Notes: generated from the letters alone by a model not told the origin. Positions 7,438-60,700 are shown, numbered from the stretch's first letter. The stretch: 64,000 nt of DNA from Candidatus Sungiibacteriota bacterium (GCA_016432465.1 CP066690.1:462823-526822); one strand, 5' to 3'. Numbers and translations: made by a program.

Positions 7438-8388
7438 GTGAAAACTTGGTTTGGCATTATCCTGCCAACTTTAAAAAAAGCGGGGTTAATTCTTGCTGTT
7501 TTGGTGTTTCTTGCACTTATAGCAGGGACGTTTTTCCGCCAAAATAAAAAAGATGCTTCGGTGGAGGGGGGCGCTACAGCCGCCCCAAAAAAACAGCAAA
7601 TTCAACTTACCCAAGATAGCGACAGCGACGGCCTTAAAGATTGGGAAGAAGCGATATACCGAACCGATCCTCATAACGCCGATACTGACGGGGACGGCGC
7701 CAAAGACGGCGAAGAAATAGCGCAGAACCGCAACCCCCTACAAGCCGGCCCCGGAGATTTTTTGGCCGCATCCGCCCCAACTGCTGGAAAAGGCGGGGTT
7801 GAACCCGCAAAAAATATTACGGACCGCCTTATCCAGCTTTTTGGCGCAAAATATTTTGCTCAAAGGATTAACGATCCCGACCAGCCCCTAGACGTACAGG
7901 AAATCGCCAACGATATAGCCCAAAATATACCCAGCTACCAGTCCTCAATCAAACCGTTTCTGTTAAAAGACCTGACGATTTTGAAAAACAGCACCCCCGA
8001 AAACATAAAGAACTGGGCTAAAAGTTTTGACGCCATCAACGAAGAGGCGTTTGCGGGCATAAACGAGGCCGAAATTTCTATTCTCATAAAGGCGCTTAGC
8101 ACCGAAGATTACTCTCTTCTGGCGGAGTTGGATAAACACATTACTGCATATAACACAACCCTGGAACGGATGAGGAAACTCGTTGTCCCATCCGAGTTTG
8201 CTTCTTTCCAGTTGCGCTTTATGAATATAGCGCTGGAGTTGCGGGAGCTCGCGCAAAATTTTAAGAAGGCGGACAAAGATGTGCTGGCTGCGTCCAGCGG
8301 GGTACAGTCCTACCTTAAACTTGCCAGCGAAATTCAAACCATCAGCCAAAACGTAAAGCAGGAACTAAGACGTAGAAATCTTTTGTGA
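7438..8388 (+). CDS. hypothetical membrane-anchored protein with Asp-rich calcium-binding-like repeats
   Basis: 316 aa; N-terminal TM helix; DSDSDGLKDWEE and DTDGDGAKDGEE repeats resembling thrombospondin type 3 or dockerin calcium loops. It is the first gene of the T4SS-like cluster. Confidence 0.5.
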   Translation: MKTWFGIILPTLKKAGLILAVLVFLALIAGTFFRQNKKDASVEGGATAAPKKQQIQLTQDSDSDGLKDWEEAIYRTDPHNADTDGDGAKDGEEIAQNRNPLQAGPGDFLAASAPTAGKGGVEPAKNITDRLIQLFGAKYFAQRINDPDQPLDVQEIANDIAQNIPSYQSSIKPFLLKDLTILKNSTPENIKNWAKSFDAINEEAFAGINEAEISILIKALSTEDYSLLAELDKHITAYNTTLERMRKLVVPSEFASFQLRFMNIALELRELAQNFKKADKDVLAASSGVQSYLKLASEIQTISQNVKQELRRRNLL

Positions 8389-26769: not shown

Positions 26770-27063
26770 TTTACCCGCCGTCGCAGAAAGCCACGGCTGG
26801 CCTACTCCGCCGAAGTAGCTTCGGCTACGAAGGCTGGATAAGGCCGTGGATGTCCCTAGGCCTTTCAGGCCGGGATCTCCCTAGGCATTAGCCGGGATGG
26901 CGGCTCGAAGAGCCTAGCCACCGGCGGCAAAGCCGTCTAGGGAAATGCGAGGGCGGAGGTCATCCGTAACTCGAAGAGCGAAGGAGGATGCTTTGGCGGA
27001 TTTCGCTGCATCTCGCTTAGTTTTCGCTGATGCGAAAAAGCGAGATGCCACGGGCGTAAGCCC
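26770..27063. repeat. GC-rich hairpin-dense intergenic repeat of the CCTAGG palindromic family (copy A)
   Basis: About 62% GC in a roughly 47% GC genome. The core at 26841-26965 aligns closely with 54494-54620 (GTCCCTAGGCCTTTCAGGCCGGGATCTCCCTAGGCATT versus GTGCCTAGGCCCTTCGGGCCGGCATCTCCCTAGGCATT). Confidence 0.6.
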
Positions 27064-34705: not shown

Positions 34706-34734
34706 TTGACTTTTTATTCTTTTTGGTGTATTAT
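34706..34734 (+). promoter_or_regulatory. sigma70-like promoter (TTGACT-17-TATTAT) upstream of the lipoprotein gene
   Basis: -35 and -10 hexamers with a 17-nt spacer, and a strong SD AAAAGGAGGG before the ATG at 34770. Confidence 0.5.
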
Positions 34735-34769
34735 TATAGTATAAACTAGAACCTAAAAAGGAGGGTGAG

Positions 34770-35012
34770 ATGAAGCGAATCCGAACCCTGATCCTGCTTT
34801 TTGTGTTCGTCCTGCCGCTTCTGGCGGCATGTGCGACTTTCAGGGTGGTGTCGGAATCGGAAACCCCGCATCCCAGAGCGATTGCGGAGTGGTCGGTTCC
34901 CGGCGCCGCACTTTCGGTGGGTAGGGGCTTTGCCTCAACCCCCGGGGTGAGGGGCACCACCCAGGGGTTTGAGTTCAGCGGCGGGAAAGTCAGAGACGTT
35001 TACCGCCGCTAA
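34770..35012 (+). CDS. small lipoprotein
   Basis: 80 aa; signal peptide with lipobox LLAAC; strong SD. Confidence 0.55.
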   Translation: MKRIRTLILLFVFVLPLLAACATFRVVSESETPHPRAIAEWSVPGAALSVGRGFASTPGVRGTTQGFEFSGGKVRDVYRR

Positions 35013-35023
35013 AGGACGTCGTG

Positions 35024-35062
35024 GCCCGGAGCGCAATGCGCGCTTCCGGGCCGCTTTTTTAT
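35024..35062 (+). terminator. rho-independent terminator (GGCCCGGAGCGCAATGCGCGCTTCCGGGCC followed by TTTTTTATTT)
   Basis: Nested GC hairpin plus a T-run immediately after the lipoprotein stop. Confidence 0.6.
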
Positions 35063-39115: not shown

Positions 39116-39466
39116 TCACAGCACCTCCTTTGATTGGAATACGGATCTAGTTGCATTATAGCATTAAACTGAACACTTTGTCAATGGAAAAAAAGCCGCA
39201 TGACATTTTCTATAATTCGGCAGTATCACAGCTGGGAAAACGGCTTATCCGCCGGAGGCGGACCCGCCTCTGGCGGGAAATAAAGCCTCCTTCGCATCCT
39301 CCTTCGTCATAGACTTCGGATGGACGTAGTAAAGCTACAGAGGGCCGAGGGAAAATCCCCGCCTACGCCAAGGCTTCGGCGGGCAGACCTGCGATTGGTT
39401 ATTGAAAAAGCAAAAGTGTCATGGGTATAGGGGATAAACACCAAAAATGTTTTATGAGGACAAATT

Positions 39467-45850: not shown

Positions 45851-46782
45851 TATCGTTCTTACAGTCTAAAGAATGGGAAGAATTCCAAAAATCAGTGGGA
45901 AGAAAAACATGGCGTCTTGGTGGGGCGCTTGTTATTCAGCACACACTGCCGCTCGGCTTCAACTATTTATACTGTCCGCGCCCCTCGGCCCCGACGGAAC
46001 AGTTTTTTAGAGAGACGGCAAAAATCGCCGCACGCGAGAAAAGTATTTTTCTAAAAATTGACCCAACCGAACAACCCCAAATTATCCCTAGGCCGCCTTG
46101 GGCGGCCGGGATCCCGGCCAAGAAAGGCCTAGGTACAAATTCCCCGCCTCTGCCAAGGCTACGGCTGGCAAGCAAATTTCAAACAAGTGCAGCGCTTCAG
46201 CCGCAAAAAAGCTTGGTTATTAACCTACAAAAATCCGAAGAAGACTTATTGGGCGCAATGTATGAGAAGACGCGTTATAATATACGACTTGCAGAACGCC
46301 ACGGGGTAGGGGTAAATCAGGCGGGTGCGCTGGAAGAGTTTTGGAAGTTGTTGGTGGAGACTGCGCGTCGGGACAAGTTTTATACTCACGAGCAAAATTA
46401 CTACGAAAAACTTCTTATGGCTTGTTCCGATAATTTTTCCAACGAACTCTTTTTTGCAAGACAAGGGAGGACACTAATCGCAGCCGCCCTGATAAACTTC
46501 TTTAAGCCCTCACAAACAGTAACTTATCTTCACGGTGCCTCTCTGCGTGAACACAAAGAGGTGATGGCGCCCCATCTTCTTCACTGGCGCATCATGCAGG
46601 ATGCCAAACGCCGCGGGTTTTCGTTCTACGATATGTGGGGGATTGATGAAAAAAAGTGGCCGGGGATTACAAGATTTAAACTTGGGTTTGGTGGAGAAGT
46701 AGTGGAATATCCGGATTCTATTGATATAATTTATGGGCAGTTTTGGTATGGTATTTATAAAATTTCAAAGGCCGTTTTATGA
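45847..46782 (+). CDS. FemAB-family peptidoglycan interpeptide-bridge aminoacyltransferase
   Basis: 311 aa; N-terminal FLQSKEWEEFQ signature and GNAT-like halves; carries an internal GC-rich insert. Confidence 0.65.
   Translation: MISFLQSKEWEEFQKSVGRKTWRLGGALVIQHTLPLGFNYLYCPRPSAPTEQFFRETAKIAAREKSIFLKIDPTEQPQIIPRPPWAAGIPAKKGLGTNSPPLPRLRLASKFQTSAALQPQKSLVINLQKSEEDLLGAMYEKTRYNIRLAERHGVGVNQAGALEEFWKLLVETARRDKFYTHEQNYYEKLLMACSDNFSNELFFARQGRTLIAAALINFFKPSQTVTYLHGASLREHKEVMAPHLLHWRIMQDAKRRGFSFYDMWGIDEKKWPGITRFKLGFGGEVVEYPDSIDIIYGQFWYGIYKISKAVL
46086..46135 (+). repeat. roughly 48-bp CCTAGG-bounded GC-rich palindromic element apparently inserted in frame in the femAB-like gene
   Basis: CCTAGGCCGCCTTGGGCGGCCGGGATCCCGGCCAAGAAAGGCCTAGG; 8-bp TIR CCTAGGCC/GGCCTAGG; shares GGCCGGGATCCCGG with the intergenic copy at 54494-54620. 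Confidence 0.45.
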
Positions 46783-54462: not shown

Positions 54463-54767
54463 TCACGCGGTTCCCTCGGTATTTTGTTTTCGCGACACGA
54501 CTCGGCCGCTCCAGTGCCTAGGCCCTTCGGGCCGGCATCTCCCTAGGCATTTCAGGCCGGGATCCCGGTCCGCAGACCTAGGGACCGGCGGCTTCGCCGC
54601 CTAGGGACGGCGGCCTCGCTAAGAGTCGGCGTAGCTTTCCTCGCAACGCTCGGAACCAAGCAAGCCACGCCTCCTATTGTCGCGAGAAACAAAATACCTC
54701 GACCGCGCGATTACGCTCGCTATAACGTATACTCCCCCCGAAAACATATCGACTCGACCGTTTTAAT
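54463..54767. repeat. GC-rich hairpin-dense intergenic repeat of the CCTAGG palindromic family (copy B)
   Basis: The core at 54494-54620 is homologous to 26841-26965 and has four CCTAGG sites. Confidence 0.55.
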
Positions 54768-56119: not shown

Positions 56120-56177
56120 CTTCCGAGGAAGTTAAATTAATAATACGACAGCATAACAATAGCCCCTTTTGGGGCTA

Positions 56178-56206
56178 TTGACTTTTAAGTATTTTTGAAG
56201 TATAAT
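56178..56206 (+). promoter_or_regulatory. strong sigma70-like promoter TTGACT-17-TATAAT driving the tRNA-cluster transcript
   Basis: Consensus -10 and 5/6 -35 hexamers with a 17-nt spacer, immediately after the YkuK terminator hairpin ATAGCCCCTTTTTGGGGCTAT. Confidence 0.5.
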
Positions 56207-56249
56207 TAAAGTATACAGATACTGTGGGGAGGGGTCTAGGGGAATACGT

Positions 56250-56330
56250 GTAATTTAATTCGGGGCTCTCCGCTCCCGTCCCTCCTCGGCGAGCTCGCCC
56301 TTCGGGCGAAGGGGCCCCGAATTAAATTAC
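56250..56330 (+). repeat. 81-nt hairpin with perfect 17-bp arms (GTAATTTAATTCGGGGC ... GCCCCGAATTAAATTAC) enclosing a GC-rich core, in the tRNA leader
   Basis: Perfect inverted repeat seen directly; the core carries further GC hairpins (GCCCTTCGGGC). Confidence 0.5.
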
Positions 56331-56468
56331 AGGGATCTTTGAATTTAAGAGGGGACTATTGTGACCGTCCAAACAGGGGGGCAAGTGGGACACTCACTAA
56401 ATCACAAATTGGGGTGTTTTCTCACCGTGTCCTCCGATTTGGGCGGTCAAAAGGCCGCAGAAACGGTT

Positions 56469-56544
56469 GGGCCCGTAGCTCAACTGGCAGAGCCTCCGGC
56501 TCATAACCGGCAGGTTCCTGGTTCGAGTCCAGGCGGGCCCACCA
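56469..56544 (+). tRNA. tRNA-Met (anticodon CAT; elongator-type G1-C72; could alternatively be tRNA-Ile2), CCA encoded
   Basis: Hand-folded cloverleaf: acceptor GGGCCCG/CGGGCCC, D arm GCTC..GAGC, anticodon loop CTCATAA, T arm CCTGG-TTCGAGT-CCAGG. Confidence 0.85.
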
Positions 56545-56580
56545 AATAGTTTCTAAACAGGACAGAAAGGAGGATGTCAC

Positions 56581-56976
56581 ATGTGGGTTGATGGTAACGG
56601 CAGGCGGCGTTCCGCCTGCAAAAAGACAGTTCGTGGGGCGGCCCTTTTCTCGCACGCGGCGAGACGGGACCGAAACCTTCACGGTCTTGAGGTTCCCGAA
56701 CCGCTACAGCGGTTTGGTGAGCGGACGAGCGAGGAGCCTCGGCGTGAGCCTCGGCAGCGCAGTGGACCGACGACCCGTGCCGAACAGCACGTGGAACAGT
56801 GCGAGCGGGTCGAGGTGATTCCCGCAATGCCATCACATAAGGATCTCGGGATGATGGGAGCTTTGGCGAGCCTTATGGCCCTAGGCGAATCGCACACGTC
56901 CAGTCTTGCCCGGACATGGCGCTCCCTCAAGGAGGTCCCCCGCCGGATTTTCCCGCGCAGGAGGGGCGACAGGTAA
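56581..56976 (+). CDS. possible Arg-rich small protein (131 aa) with a strong SD, inside a GC-rich island; could instead be non-coding structured RNA
   Basis: AAAGGAGG 7 nt before the ATG; about 62% GC; Arg-rich translation of low confidence. Confidence 0.2.
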   Translation: MWVDGNGRRRSACKKTVRGAALFSHAARRDRNLHGLEVPEPLQRFGERTSEEPRREPRQRSGPTTRAEQHVEQCERVEVIPAMPSHKDLGMMGALASLMALGESHTSSLARTWRSLKEVPRRIFPRRRGDR

Positions 56977-56987
56977 CAGGGTTCAGT

Positions 56988-57062
56988 GACGCCGTCGTCT
57001 AGTGGTCAAGATCTGGGCCCTTCAAGCCCGGGACAAGGGTTCAAATCCCTTCGGCGTCACCA
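56988..57062 (+). tRNA. tRNA-Glu (anticodon TTC), CCA encoded
   Basis: Hand-folded: acceptor GACGCCG/CGGCGTC, anticodon loop CCTTCAA, T arm AAGGG-TTCAAAT-CCCTT. Confidence 0.85.
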
Positions 57063-57088
57063 TCCCATACGGTTTTTACGTAGTCGGT

Positions 57089-57165
57089 GGGCTCGTAGCT
57101 CAACTTGGTAGAGCAGCGGGCTTTTAACCCGAGGGTTGCAGGTTCAACTCCTGCCGGGCCCACCA
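57089..57165 (+). tRNA. tRNA-Lys (anticodon TTT), CCA encoded
   Basis: Hand-folded: acceptor GGGCTCG/CGGGCCC, anticodon loop CTTTTAA, T arm GCAGG-TTCAACT-CCTGC. Confidence 0.85.
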
Positions 57166-57207
57166 AATTAAGTCTGGCCATCAGCACATAAAGGAGGTGA
57201 GGCTTAG

Positions 57208-57300
57208 GTGTATCGTTTCCAGATCACAGGCGGCGGCATCATCATCGTGGGCAATGAGGTCCGCGATTGGGTGAGCCGTAGCTGGTCCGAGGTGAAGTGA
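57208..57300 (+). CDS. possible 30-aa peptide (GTG start) with a perfect SD immediately after tRNA-Lys
   Basis: AAAGGAGGTG then GTG; translation VYRFQITGGGIIIVGNEVRDWVSRSWSEVK; speculative. Confidence 0.2.
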   Translation: MYRFQITGGGIIIVGNEVRDWVSRSWSEVK

Positions 57301-57513
57301 CCCGCCTCTTATAACGGGGAACACCAAAATACCGGTGTTCCCCCTCGAGCCGGTCCCATAAGGTTTCGACGAATAGGTTTCTCCCCAAAGTAATTTTGTA
57401 CCTTTTACAATTAACTTAGGAGGAACCTACGATCTTTATGGGATCAGCTCGGGTATTTATTATTACAGCTCTTAAAGAGACCACGTAAGAGATATTTTTC
57501 ATCTTCGCAAAAA

Positions 57514-57547
57514 CCGTCCCTCTGTCAGTGACAGAGGGGCGGTTTTT
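57514..57547 (+). terminator. rho-independent terminator CCGTCCCTCTGTCAGTGACAGAGGGGCGG followed by TTTTT
   Basis: 12-bp stem plus a T-run upstream of tRNA-Arg. Confidence 0.6.
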
Positions 57548-57587
57548 GCTTGAAAGAGTTACGCGGCAAAGATATTATTGAATTGCT

Positions 57588-57660
57588 GTCCCTGTAGTTT
57601 AGCGGATAGAACACTGGCCTCCGAAGCCAGAGATCGGGGGTTCGAATCCTCCCAGGGACG
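57588..57660 (+). tRNA. tRNA-Arg (anticodon CCG), CCA not encoded
   Basis: Hand-folded: acceptor GTCCCTG/CAGGGAC, anticodon loop CTCCGAA, T arm GGGGG-TTCGAAT-CCTCC. Confidence 0.8.
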
Positions 57661-57681
57661 TTCAAGGTTAGTAAAACCCGC

Positions 57682-59368: not shown

Positions 59369-60700
59369 ATGAAATTATCATTCCACGGCGGTGCCCGGGA
59401 GGTGACAGGAGCGTGTTATCTTTTAGAGACCGCCCAAACAAAAATTCTTATTGATTGCGGACTTTTTCAGGGGTGCGACGAGTGCGCGGATTTAAATTTT
59501 GAGAAATTTAAGTTTGAGCCGCGAAAAATTGACCTGCTGGTTGTAACGCATGCCCACCTTGATCACGTGGGCCGGATCCCCAAACTTGTCCAAGAGGGAT
59601 TCTCCGGAAAAATTTATTCCACCGCTCCGACACAAGAATTGGCTCGTTTAATTTTGGAGGATGCGTTTCATCTGATGCGGCGCGACAGTAAAAAGATGTA
59701 TGACGAAGAGGATTTGGAAAAAACTTTCCGGCTTTGGGAGGACGTTCCTTATCACAAAATTCTTGAAACAGGGGATATAAAATTTCGTCTTAATAATGCC
59801 GGCCACATATTGGGCTCAAGCCTTGTTGAACTTTGGGCAGAGAATAAACATTGGCTTTTTAGCGGGGATCTTGGCAACTTGCCCTCTGCCCTTCTGCCCC
59901 CGCCGGAAACCTTCAAAAATATTGAATATTTGGTTTTGGAGTCAACTTATGGAAATCGCACTCACGAGGATCCGGGGGAAAGAGTACTGATGCTGGAGCG
60001 GGCGGTGGAGGACGTGACTGCGCGTCATGGGATGTTGATGATACCGGCTTTTGCTACAGAACGAACCCAAGACATCCTGTTTTTGTTGAACGAGATGCTG
60101 CTTTTCAAGCGTATTCCGGAGATTCCGGTTTTTGTGGATGCGCCGCTGGCGATTCGCGTGACATCAGTTTTTGAAAAATATACGGACCACTATAAGGAAG
60201 AAATCCGCGAGCTTTTCCGTCAACACCCCAATCTTTTTAAATTTAAAAAGTTGAAGTTTACCGAATCCGTTGAGGAGTCAAAGAAAATAAACGATGTTCC
60301 TCCGCCCAAAGTAGTAATCGCGGGTTCCGGTATGATGAATGGCGGAAGAATTTTACATCATGCGCGTCGTTATCTCCCCGACCCCAAAAGTATTTTATTG
60401 ATTATTGGGTACCAAGCGGCAGGTTCTTTGGGCCGGCGGCTTATTGACGGCGAAAAAACGGTAAAACTTTTTGGAGAAGAGATTTCGGTGGCAGCCGAGA
60501 TTAGAAAAATAAATGGTTTCTCGGCCCACGCTGATAATCCGCAGCTGTTTGACTTTGTTGACAGAAACCGCGATGCCCTGAAGCGCGTTTTTGTGGTTCA
60601 GGGCGAGGAGCCGCAGGCGCTTCATTTTATGCAGGAAATTAAAGATCGGCTTGGAGTTCAAGCCGACGCCCCTACGCTTTATCAAGAGTTTGAGATTTGA
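59369..60700 (+). CDS. metallo-beta-lactamase / beta-CASP family ribonuclease (RNase J/CPSF-like)
   Basis: HxHxDH motif VTHAHLDHVGRIP; beta-CASP region; C-terminal His motif. Confidence 0.7.
   Translation: MKLSFHGGAREVTGACYLLETAQTKILIDCGLFQGCDECADLNFEKFKFEPRKIDLLVVTHAHLDHVGRIPKLVQEGFSGKIYSTAPTQELARLILEDAFHLMRRDSKKMYDEEDLEKTFRLWEDVPYHKILETGDIKFRLNNAGHILGSSLVELWAENKHWLFSGDLGNLPSALLPPPETFKNIEYLVLESTYGNRTHEDPGERVLMLERAVEDVTARHGMLMIPAFATERTQDILFLLNEMLLFKRIPEIPVFVDAPLAIRVTSVFEKYTDHYKEEIRELFRQHPNLFKFKKLKFTESVEESKKINDVPPPKVVIAGSGMMNGGRILHHARRYLPDPKSILLIIGYQAAGSLGRRLIDGEKTVKLFGEEISVAAEIRKINGFSAHADNPQLFDFVDRNRDALKRVFVVQGEEPQALHFMQEIKDRLGVQADAPTLYQEFEI

Follow-up and report, generated by a model that had tools for sequence, protein, structure and literature searches.

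We describe a tRNA locus at positions 56157-57661 of a 64,000-nucleotide (nt) stretch of DNA (the window) from a Candidatus Sungiibacteriota bacterium (GCA_016432465.1, CP066690.1:462823-526822). The locus is best explained as a conserved mixed tRNA operon, not as junk or a recent foreign insert. It carries a two-hairpin RNA, three tRNAs, at least one small protein gene and a 110-nt hairpin (E3), and on balance these parts probably work together in the way set out in the last section. Coordinates are those of the window, and all features lie on the + strand unless stated otherwise. The host belongs to the Candidate Phyla Radiation (CPR); it is a groundwater bacterium of Sungiibacteriota type (Parcubacteria/CPR) that has not been cultured, and its genome recurs in the SRR121134xx sequencing runs.

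We compared the locus with 21 loci from metagenome-assembled genomes (MAGs), which were retrieved with the RNaseH-like protein (PF04308) encoded upstream as the query. These MAGs are labelled Candidatus Sungiibacteriota, Parcubacteria group or Patescibacteria group, and 'Saccharibacteria' in bulk submissions. At least 20 genomes keep the gene order hydrolase, WYL-exonuclease, RNaseH-like gene, variable gap and tRNA-Arg(CCG), and the length of the gap lies between 54 nt and 5.6 kb. The initial annotation of this DNA had proposed to look at the synteny of the tRNA cluster, and its slot is indeed conserved in the relatives. The architecture of the window locus recurs in L155, a contig of another sequencing project. 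The order there is domain 1 of the RNA (cut by the contig end), domain 2, tRNA-Ile(UAU), a Shine-Dalgarno (SD) motif with a homolog of a 131-amino-acid (aa) open reading frame (ORF131), tRNA-Glu, tRNA-Lys, a 30-aa open reading frame (ORF30), a small hairpin, E3, a terminator and tRNA-Arg, with the GC-rich block around ORF131 in the same place as in the window.

A conserved two-hairpin leader RNA

Judged by its conservation and covariation, the leader is a conserved structured RNA that was previously uncatalogued. The sequence between promoter and first tRNA (56210-56468) folds with z = -5.5 relative to shuffles, and BLAST showed that two pieces of it (56254-56326 and 56376-56437) recur in the gaps of several relatives but gave no such match for the GC-rich block. 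The RNA is ~210 nt long and has two hairpin domains. Profile searches found it in the window and in L001, L003, L004, L006, L007, L009, L010, L011, L012, L015, L079 and L122 (L015 is identical to L025). Every homolog sits in the same syntenic slot, in most cases with a consensus promoter directly 5' of it. The nhmmer and covariance-model matches are confined to this slot in 12-13 genomes, and the window has a single copy. A pattern scan of metagenomes with the domain 1 core returned at least 120 matches, nearly all of them due to chance, and only L025, L079 and L122 were kept by nhmmer and the covariance model; the same scan of viral contigs gave chance matches only. A point against the operon model is that the RNA is missing from the slot in about 10 of the 22 relatives.

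Domain 1 (56247-56333; the covariance-model match spans 56239-56340) contains the perfect-armed hairpin that the initial annotation had pointed out. Its perfect arms are 18 nt long (56249-56266 and 56314-56331) and reach 23 nt at 91% when extended. The closing stem of 23 base pairs (bp) joins 56247-56269 to 56311-56333, and its outer half varies freely yet stays paired. Within it, an inner hairpin (56272-78 with 56287-94) presents an invariant loop, and a small GC hairpin follows at 56295-56309. Compensatory changes were seen in 19 of the 32 pairs of the domain 1 alignment and 92% of its cells were paired, values that none of 500 shuffles reached; controls with slid partners gave 33-61% paired cells versus the ~92% observed. 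The loop at 56279-56286 is an octamer, N-CCCUCCU (NCCCUCCU; UCCCUCCU), which resembles an anti-SD sequence. Its last seven bases, CCCUCCU, are invariant in all 12 aligned sequences, and the stem that closes it covaries.

Domain 2 is a long hairpin at 56363-56448, delimited by the alignment and by nhmmer. A GGRGGG strand is paired with GUCCUCCGA, and the apex GACACUCACUA...GAGUG is conserved. Its alignment has compensatory changes in 14 of 25 pairs and paired bases in 92.6% of cells, values that 0 of 500 shuffles reached and that controls with slid partners fell far short of; over both domains, the pairs with compensatory changes number 33. In L155, domain 2 carries an inserted hairpin of ~180 nt. 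The functional strand of the RNA is placed on + by the frequent G-U pairs and by the domain 1 covariance model, which scores 91.9 bits on + versus 33.9 bits on -.

The leader did not match any known family. A search of Rfam 15 with the window and 12 relatives, both at the gathering threshold and at E <= 10, recovered the tRNAs only and left the leader, the GC-rich block and E3 unmatched; the best non-tRNA matches were at chance level and far under their thresholds (for example mir-786, 21 bits versus 93). The GC-rich block was accordingly not recognised as an RNA gene in this search, a check that the initial annotation had proposed. Since Rfam gave no match, readings as RNase P, 6S, SRP, tmRNA, ROOL, GOLLD, T-box or group I intron were dropped, and ARAGORN found no tmRNA. 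The early suspicion of an unrecognised structured RNA at this locus thus holds for the leader and for E3; it does not hold for the GC-rich block itself.

The element 3' of the RNA differs among genomes. The window and L009 have the tRNA with anticodon CAU at this place, L001 and L004 have a 62-aa membrane ORF, L011 has GC-rich ORFs and L006 an ABC transporter; tRNA-Arg is also among the variants. Because the downstream neighbour varies between genomes, we regard the leader as an RNA gene or module rather than a gene-specific riboswitch; the latter was rejected since no consistent class of downstream gene accompanies the homologs. A broader version of this idea is that the RNA is a cis-acting leader, riboswitch or attenuator, that controls read-through into the tRNAs and small ORFs, with domain 2 as a terminator or sequestering hairpin and the CCCUCCU loop competing for the GGRGGG strand of domain 2. 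The RNA is always at the 5' end of a transcription unit, right after the promoter, its domain 1 loop and the 5' strand of domain 2 have complementary sequences, and small membrane ORFs lie 3' of it in L001 and L004. L004, L009, L012 and arguably L011 have a U-rich tract behind the strong GC-rich stem of domain 2, and in these three or four relatives domain 2 could act as a terminator. However, no U-tract follows domain 2 in the window, L001, L003 or L007, and in L009 a new -10-like box 3' of domain 2 points to an RNA gene that stands alone. The genes downstream are of several kinds, as listed above, no ligand class is suggested, and Rfam gave no riboswitch match. We consider a cis-acting leader possible but doubtful, also in the specific form with competition between loop and domain 2 strand, and continue with the RNA module as the preferred reading.

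Two further observations concern the surroundings of the RNA. The single-stranded 5' stretch ahead of domain 1 (56213-56246 in the window) often has a purine run complementary to the CCCUCCU loop; in the window this is GGGGAGGGG at 56225-56233, and L004 has a comparable run (GAGGAGGA, L004 6570-6580) ahead of its domain 1; a pseudoknot between the 5' purine run and the loop is possible. The 62-aa ORFs directly 3' of the RNA at L001 6121-6309 and L004 6819-7007 would encode two-helix membrane proteins that are alike (tblastn E = 1e-4), and there is no such ORF in the window.

A micropeptide gene behind tRNA-Lys

The initial annotation had noticed a perfect SD and a GTG-initiated 30-aa frame after tRNA-Lys. 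Both were found: the extended motif AAAGGAGGTGAGG (57190-57202), which would pair with the canonical 16S 3' tail over 11 contiguous positions, precedes the frame MYRFQITGGGIIIVGNEVRDWVSRSWSEVK (57208-57300), which starts with GTG at 57208. On comparative grounds, ORF30 is a real, conserved micropeptide gene. Between the window and L155, the synonymous divergence (dS) is 0.65 and the nonsynonymous divergence (dN) 0.08, a dN/dS of 0.13, and the differences by codon position number 3, 3 and 8, so that 8 of 14 fall on the third. When the syntenic segments of L001 and L007 were translated, their best match to ORF30 beat all but 1 of 1000 shuffles (p ~0.001 each). Relatives of ORF30 were found in four other genomes (L155, L001, L154 and L007; protein matches P0002-P0004), and a C-terminal motif, D[WL]xxR[SD][WK]S[EQ]xK-stop, is common to ORF30 and its relatives in L001, L007 and L154. 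The homologous ORFs in all four genomes are preceded by AGGAGGTG, and the relatives in L001 and L154 differ by whole-codon indels.

Directly 3' of the stop codon there is a perfect 10-bp hairpin, GGGGAACACC/GGTGTTCCCC (57316-57343, z = -4.2). L155 keeps it with an altered stem sequence.

The GC-rich block and ORF131

The spacer between the first tRNA and tRNA-Glu (56545-56987) is 443 nt long and has 61% GC, versus a window average of 48%, in agreement with the initial description. The same description had called it full of hairpins, and this did not hold: the block folded no better than shuffles (z = -1.0 on + and -1.7 on -), so there is no excess of hairpins beyond its composition. The block begins with the SD AAAGGAGG (56566-56573), 21 nt 3' of the tRNA end and 7 nt 5' of an ATG, and the Arg-rich ORF131 (56581-56976) follows, as had been noted. 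The N- and C-termini of ORF131 are conserved and its middle is variable. In L155, the homologous ATG is preceded by AAAGGAGGGG.

We think it probable, from the comparison with L155, that the block is protein-coding and encodes a fast-evolving small basic protein, and a nucleic-acid-binding role for it is plausible. An exhaustive HMMER scan found a homolog, P0005, of 129 aa with 58% identity over the full length (E = 1.5e-26), encoded at the equivalent place on L155. The two genes are 74% identical in nucleotides and share the SD, the ATG and the stop, with no interruption of the frame in either genome. Four indels separate the two genes, all of them of whole codons; the differences by codon position are 33, 36 and 49, and dN/dS is 0.52. 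In the conserved N- and C-terminal parts there are 19 synonymous codon changes, and the other sense frames have 7 and 8. Window and L155 also have antisense ORFs; these are in different relative frames, and the sense frame alone is open in both. By our own arithmetic, an open frame of 131 codons at the GC content of the block has a chance of ~0.02 per genome. GC at codon positions 1, 2 and 3 is 0.67, 0.55 and 0.67, and the block is likely to be GC-rich because the protein is rich in Arg, Gly, Pro and Ala.

The opposite reading is that the block is non-coding, either spacer or RNA, and that its frame is open because stops are scarce in GC-rich DNA. Several results weigh on this side. P0005 is the one ORF131 homolog among ~15 billion proteins. 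A dN/dS of 0.52 means weak constraint, and the antisense frame that shares the wobble positions has an equal synonymous excess. The codon score of ORF131 is -6.02, versus -5.72 +/- 0.07 for the genes of the genome (4 standard deviations lower), and its in-frame codon advantage is +0.08 versus a mean of +0.33. AlphaFold2 gave a mean confidence (predicted local distance difference test, pLDDT) of 52.8, and the model is largely disordered with a C-terminal helical pair. Neither Pfam nor PHROGs had a match for ORF131 or for the other small ORFs of the window and relatives. By BLAST and by Smith-Waterman alignment with shuffles, the block showed no DNA homology to the equivalent segments of L001, L009, L011, L012, L015 and L154. 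Against a non-coding block stand the frame that stays open in both genomes despite 26% nucleotide divergence, the whole-codon indels, the excess of synonymous changes in the one frame open in both and, for an RNA in particular, a fold no better than shuffles. We give the non-coding reading a limited chance, and a fast-evolving protein gene is preferred.

This assessment changed during the work. A word-indexed search of 5.8 billion clusters matched ORF131 to itself alone, and a spurious frame was our provisional view until the HMMER homolog P0005 overturned it. The lesson is that an exhaustive HMMER scan may find a relative that a word-indexed search misses. With both ORF30 and ORF131 kept in L155, the proposal of micro-proteins encoded in the tRNA operon is supported.

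Horizontal acquisition at tRNA genes had been suggested as another origin of the segment, and we weighed it together with a mobile insert; the high GC and SDs of foreign style might point that way. The block has 61% GC in a window of 48%, and the slot differs in length among relatives (54 nt to 5.6 kb). In L001 the block is absent and the gap between the first tRNA and tRNA-Glu is 16 nt, therefore gain or loss has happened; at the equivalent place in L009, L011 and L154 there are non-homologous GC-rich ORFs led by SDs. However, Pfam on the neighbouring genes and the repeat search revealed no integrase, transposase, terminal repeats or target duplications, and viral contigs matched at chance level only. 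The same block is found in the same order in the diverged relative L155, within a conserved syntenic slot; other native small genes of the window are GC-rich and SD-led as well, and GC follows amino-acid composition. An insert is thus very unlikely, and we retain a conserved operon.

The non-homologous GC-rich ORFs with upstream GGAGG-type motifs lie at L154 102-326, L009 7986-8261 and L011 6473-6936. They encode 74, 91, 91 and 59 aa, are located 3' of tRNA(CAU) or of the RNA, and have no match in Pfam or PHROGs.

E3 and the 16-aa frame

E3 (57344-57453) is a conserved 110-nt hairpin, also supported by nhmmer, with a folding free energy (dG) of -52.6 kcal/mol and z = -8.5. Window and L155 share 93% identity in the segment that holds it (57301-57456), more than in any tRNA or ORF of the locus. 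L001 has a counterpart (dG -67.7 kcal/mol, z = -8.6) with the same inner stem and the motif CGACGAAUNGGUUUCUCCC; the sequence of its outer stem is wholly different and the pairing is kept.

A third SD-led frame, of 16 aa, had been listed among the small ORFs. The AGGAGG motif (57418), the ATG and the frame MGSARVFIITALKETT (57438-57488) are present. However, the inner stem of E3, GGUUUCUCC/GGAGGAACC, sequesters the GGAGG at 57419, and the ATG at 57438 lies in the outer stem. The frame is therefore not a free SD-led ORF, since both elements are base-paired inside the hairpin. Its counterpart in L155 is a hydrophobic ORF of 20 aa, MGLLIFTLVIMFVIAALREA, of which the window frame resembles a shortened version. 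L155 has hydrophobic ORFs between and after its tRNAs at 971-1048 (25 aa), 1149-1304 (51 aa) and 1609-1671 (20 aa), the first two with SD-like motifs upstream. All three are absent or degraded in the window, and the micro-ORF set of the operon turns over fast.

Two explanations for E3 other than a conserved regulatory element of the operon were weighed. Firstly, E3 and the 23-bp closing stem of domain 1 might mainly be RNase III hairpins that process or stabilise a polycistronic precursor, like the stalks of rRNA operons or the intercistronic hairpins of phage T7. The length and perfection of the stems would fit (18-23 bp in domain 1, an irregular duplex of ~45 bp in E3), they stand at the borders of the unit, and the outer stems covary freely with their length kept. 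A double-stranded cleavage site does not account for the sequence-specific constraint seen in the invariant sequences of loops and internal loops (CCCUCCU, GGGGCUCUGA, GGCUAAGGGG and GACACUCAC), nor for 93% identity in the segment with E3, and we consider this role as the main one rather unlikely. Secondly, E3 might lock both the ribosome-binding site and the start codon for a tiny hydrophobic peptide, in a module similar to type I toxin-antitoxin systems with a structured RNA as the antitoxin. The hairpin, at -52.6 kcal/mol, hides GGAGG as well as AUG, MGLLIFTLVIMFVIAALREA of L155 is hydrophobic and of the size of Ibs or ShoB, and more hydrophobic micro-ORFs are found in L155, L001 and L004. 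However, no antisense promoter or antisense RNA was identified in the locus, the window peptide is shortened and less hydrophobic, L001 has E3 without an obvious equivalent ORF, and no known toxin family model tested positively. Such a module is highly improbable, and E3 is best kept as a conserved hairpin that hides an SD and a start codon.

Promoters, tRNAs and terminators of the unit

The sigma-70-type promoter TTGACT-17-TATAAT claimed at 56178 is present (56178-56206) and matches 11 of 12 consensus positions. Its counterpart is found 5' of the RNA in L001, L003, L004, L009, L010, L011 and L012, frequently with the extended -10 TGTATAAT. The -35 box is overlapped by a terminator-like hairpin of the upstream RNaseH-like gene (56157-56180). 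The region has four promoter-like sites versus 1.2 expected; a second one, TTGAAA-17-TATTAT (57550-57578), is 5' of tRNA-Arg. Before it, the strong terminator that had been described is located at 57507-57549, with 21-nt arms that are 95% complementary and then TTTTT; by its shape it would be bidirectional. L155 has a terminator at the matching place with a different stem sequence. Aside from an 11-nt AT-rich triplet in the promoter, no tandem repeats were found in the locus.

The window scan found no terminator between 56206 and 57507, and it is from this that co-transcription of the interval is predicted. Expression, processing and translation of the locus are likewise predictions from its sequence, which weighs against the operon model.

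ARAGORN and Rfam both identified tRNA(CAU) (56469-56544), tRNA-Glu(UUC) (56988-57062), tRNA-Lys(UUU) (57089-57165) and tRNA-Arg(CCG) (57587-57661), the last of which is the downstream anchor of the syntenic slot in the relatives. The four score 59-69 bits (Rfam RF00005, threshold 29), and the anticodons are from ARAGORN. Over 110 nt, tRNA-Lys and tRNA(CAU), each with its trailer, are 75% identical, CAGNACANAAAGGAGG included. The first tRNA had been annotated as tRNA-Met. Its CAU anticodon stands; it is not an initiator, because it has a G1-C72 pair. It is possibly a lysidine-dependent tRNA-Ile2, in which case close relatives would differ in their strategy to decode AUA. In L155, a tRNA-Ile(UAU) (384-459) takes the slot of tRNA(CAU).

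Shine-Dalgarno motifs in an SD-poor genome

Most genes of the window lack SDs, as had been stated: GGAGG is upstream of 1 of the 43 ORFs of at least 150 aa in the 64 kb, and any SD 4-mer upstream of 6 of the 43. Of the 14 copies of AAGGAGG on the + strand of the whole 64 kb, three are inside the 1.6 kb of the locus. The cluster had been called a clear local anomaly; the concentration is there, and strong SDs are also found at 34771-35013 and near 39129. SD-led GC-rich small genes are thus not confined to the locus, since the gene at 34771-35013 has a strong SD too.

We observed the following at these other sites. At 34706-35060, a promoter 82% identical over 38 nt to that at 56178 stands ahead of the SD AAAAAGGAGGGTGAG and a GC-rich ORF of 80 aa (34771-35013), which has a signal of lipoprotein type (…LPLLAAC…); a terminator comes next. 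On the minus strand near 39129, an intergenic SD, CAAAGGAGG, precedes a 40-aa hydrophobic ORF, VMGSAIAGLFFCVSGLIWVLAGNTPIGMMNVAVGMMFIVL, a candidate small membrane protein; GGAGG sites also occur at 39291 and 39303. Many long ORFs (e.g., those at 7438, 16415, 21488, 51864 and 58135) have a TATAAT-like box that ends 3-8 nt 5' of the start and no SD, which suggests that leaderless mRNAs are widespread in the window.

Duplex energies bear on what the SDs of ORF131 (SD1) and ORF30 (SD2) pair with. The 3' tail of 16S rRNA used here is the canonical sequence and not one from this genome; the window carries no rRNA. With this tail, which may not be that of the host, the duplexes of SD1 and SD2 reach -14.2 and -17.6 kcal/mol, versus -10.8 and -11.5 kcal/mol with the domain 1 loop (SD2 computed with AAAGGAGGTGA). 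Since pairing with the tail beats pairing with the loop, SD1 and SD2 look like real ribosome-binding sites.

Our best guess is that the leader RNA controls the rare small mRNAs that depend on an SD. In the Rsa RNAs, C-rich loops have been documented to target SDs and block translation (PMC2790875), and a part of the Parcubacteria, about half, is reported to lack the anti-SD motif in 16S rRNA (PMC9297842); because of the latter report, an RNA with an invariant CCCUCCU loop seems worth following up. In favour of a role at SDs, the loop is invariant and exposed, and the density of AGGAGG is 1.36 per kb in gaps with the RNA versus 0.27 in gaps without it, a difference partly inflated by the RNA's own GGAGG. 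In its specific form, the two-hairpin RNA would be a lineage-specific regulator of, or decoy for, a few SD-dependent mRNAs, mostly of tiny membrane or basic proteins, in a bacterium that otherwise translates leaderless mRNAs independently of SDs. The better match of the SDs to the canonical ribosomal tail than to the loop speaks against an anti-SD role in general, as do the invariance of the loop, which leaves it without support from covariation, and the best predicted + strand target of the loop (56955), which is not conserved in L155. We hold the regulator or decoy to be a speculative and distinctly unlikely proposal.

Comparison with known systems

The initial annotation had compared ORF131 to tpr of the Escherichia coli tyrT operon. 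The distal region of tyrT consists of ~178-bp tandem repeats that carry tRNA 3' fragments. The tyrT transcript yields the non-coding rttR RNA and the small protamine-like protein tpr (PMC3141248). Similar to tyrT, the window locus is a predicted tRNA unit with a non-coding RNA and a probable small, very basic protein, the pieces of which would be freed by tRNA processing. Unlike tyrT, it has no tandem repeats and no sequence similarity to tyrT or tpr, its ORFs are between tRNAs and have strong SDs, and its RNA is 5' of the tRNAs and conserved with covariation. The comparison is thus a fair functional analogy and not one of homology.

RsaE/RoxS and other Rsa RNAs of Firmicutes share with domain 1 an unpaired C-rich loop motif complementary to SDs (UCCC there, CCCUCCU here). 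The RNA described here is larger, has two domains, comes from a CPR lineage in which SDs are rare and has no sequence or Rfam match to them, and its pairing to SDs is a prediction. In the STAB-SD elements of Bacillus thuringiensis cryIIIA and of B. subtilis, a strong SD-like sequence near the 5' end can recruit 30S subunits and block 5'-to-3' decay. The motif AAAGGAGG likewise stands ~21-25 nt after tRNA 3' ends, near 5' ends that excision would make; here, however, start codons follow at proper spacing and the ORFs are conserved, so that the SDs would foremost be ribosome-binding sites and a stabilising role is an inference.

Type I toxin mRNAs (tisB, hok, ibs/shoB) resemble E3 in that a very stable, conserved structure hides the SD and the start codon of a very short hydrophobic ORF; they differ in that E3 has no antisense RNA and no known toxin family, and in that its ORF is poorly conserved among the window, L155 and L001. 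ROOL, GOLLD, 6S, SRP, RNase P and tmRNA are structured RNA genes as well, strongly expressed in those families and some of them near tRNAs. As we read the sequence, however, the 6S rod, the SRP hairpin motifs and the RNase P core are unlike the two independent hairpins found here. TIGR-Tas guide arrays have been reported in CPR (PMC12045711). An array of this or of a CRISPR-like type was rejected: there is no repeat-spacer array in the locus, and its neighbours, by Pfam, are the WYL-exonuclease, the RNaseH-like gene (PF04308) and a dUTPase.

Neighbouring genes and other GC-rich islands

Many loci have a peptidoglycan-binding protein and/or a beta-CASP metallo-beta-lactamase RNase 3' of tRNA-Arg. 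In the window, the latter gene (59369-60700, 443 aa) is 1.7 kb downstream of the locus; its product has Lactamase_B, Beta-Casp and RMMBL domains and is similar to RNase J/CPSF. It is present in ten of the relatives whose contigs extend that far, and it may have a role in the processing or decay of the operon RNAs.

Other GC-rich intergenic islands of the window share no repeats with the tRNA locus. The islands at 26853-26889 and 54517-54564 have a CCTAGG-rich repeat in common (CCTAGGCCYTTCRGGCCGG.ATCTCCCTAGGCATT; 91-96% identity), and CCTAGG pairs are also found at 46087/46128. The island at 54467-54712 is enclosed by an AT-rich inverted repeat of ~30 bp (CGCGGTTCCCTCGGTATTTTGTTTTCGCGACA / TGTCGCGAGAAACAAAATACCTCGACCGCG). 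The CCTAGG islands have no Rfam match; they may represent a further uncatalogued RNA or a repeat family of small size.

Proposed working of the operon and its meaning

We propose that transcription from one promoter would produce, in order, the leader RNA, tRNA(CAU), ORF131, tRNA-Glu, tRNA-Lys, ORF30, E3 and the terminator, and that tRNA-Arg would follow from its own promoter. RNase P and RNase Z would excise the tRNAs and so free the structured RNA and two short mRNAs. The leader RNA, which has no terminator of its own in the window, would be released by the RNase P cut at tRNA(CAU). After excision, the new 5' ends of the mRNAs would be ~20 nt (20-25) upstream of strong SDs. The internal cistrons may carry such SDs because leaderless initiation would be impossible for them. 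In addition, the SDs may shield the processed 5' ends in the manner of STAB-SDs. As a hypothesis only, the CCUCC-bearing RNA and E3 could modulate access to GGAGG through SD sequestration in cis or in trans.

A tRNA operon that includes mRNAs and an RNA is of a known kind; the RNA family and the micro-proteins are new, and the translational context is unusual. The RNA family is outside Rfam, supported by covariation and predicted to be driven by a promoter. The 30-aa protein has solid comparative evidence and the 131-aa basic protein moderate evidence, and both would be encoded between tRNA genes, where standard annotation overlooks such small genes or calls them unsupported. CPR/Patescibacteria make up a large part of bacterial diversity, and to our knowledge their non-coding RNAs and micro-proteins are hardly known. 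With SD and anti-SD-like sequences adjacent on one predicted transcript, the locus is a natural test case for SD-dependent initiation in a genome that is mostly without SDs. If the decoy reading were true, the exact copy of the anti-SD heptamer in the loop would compete with 30S subunits for these mRNAs, or for a factor that binds the 16S 3' tail, and the RNA would be devoted to the control of an 'SD regulon' and share a tRNA operon with its targets.

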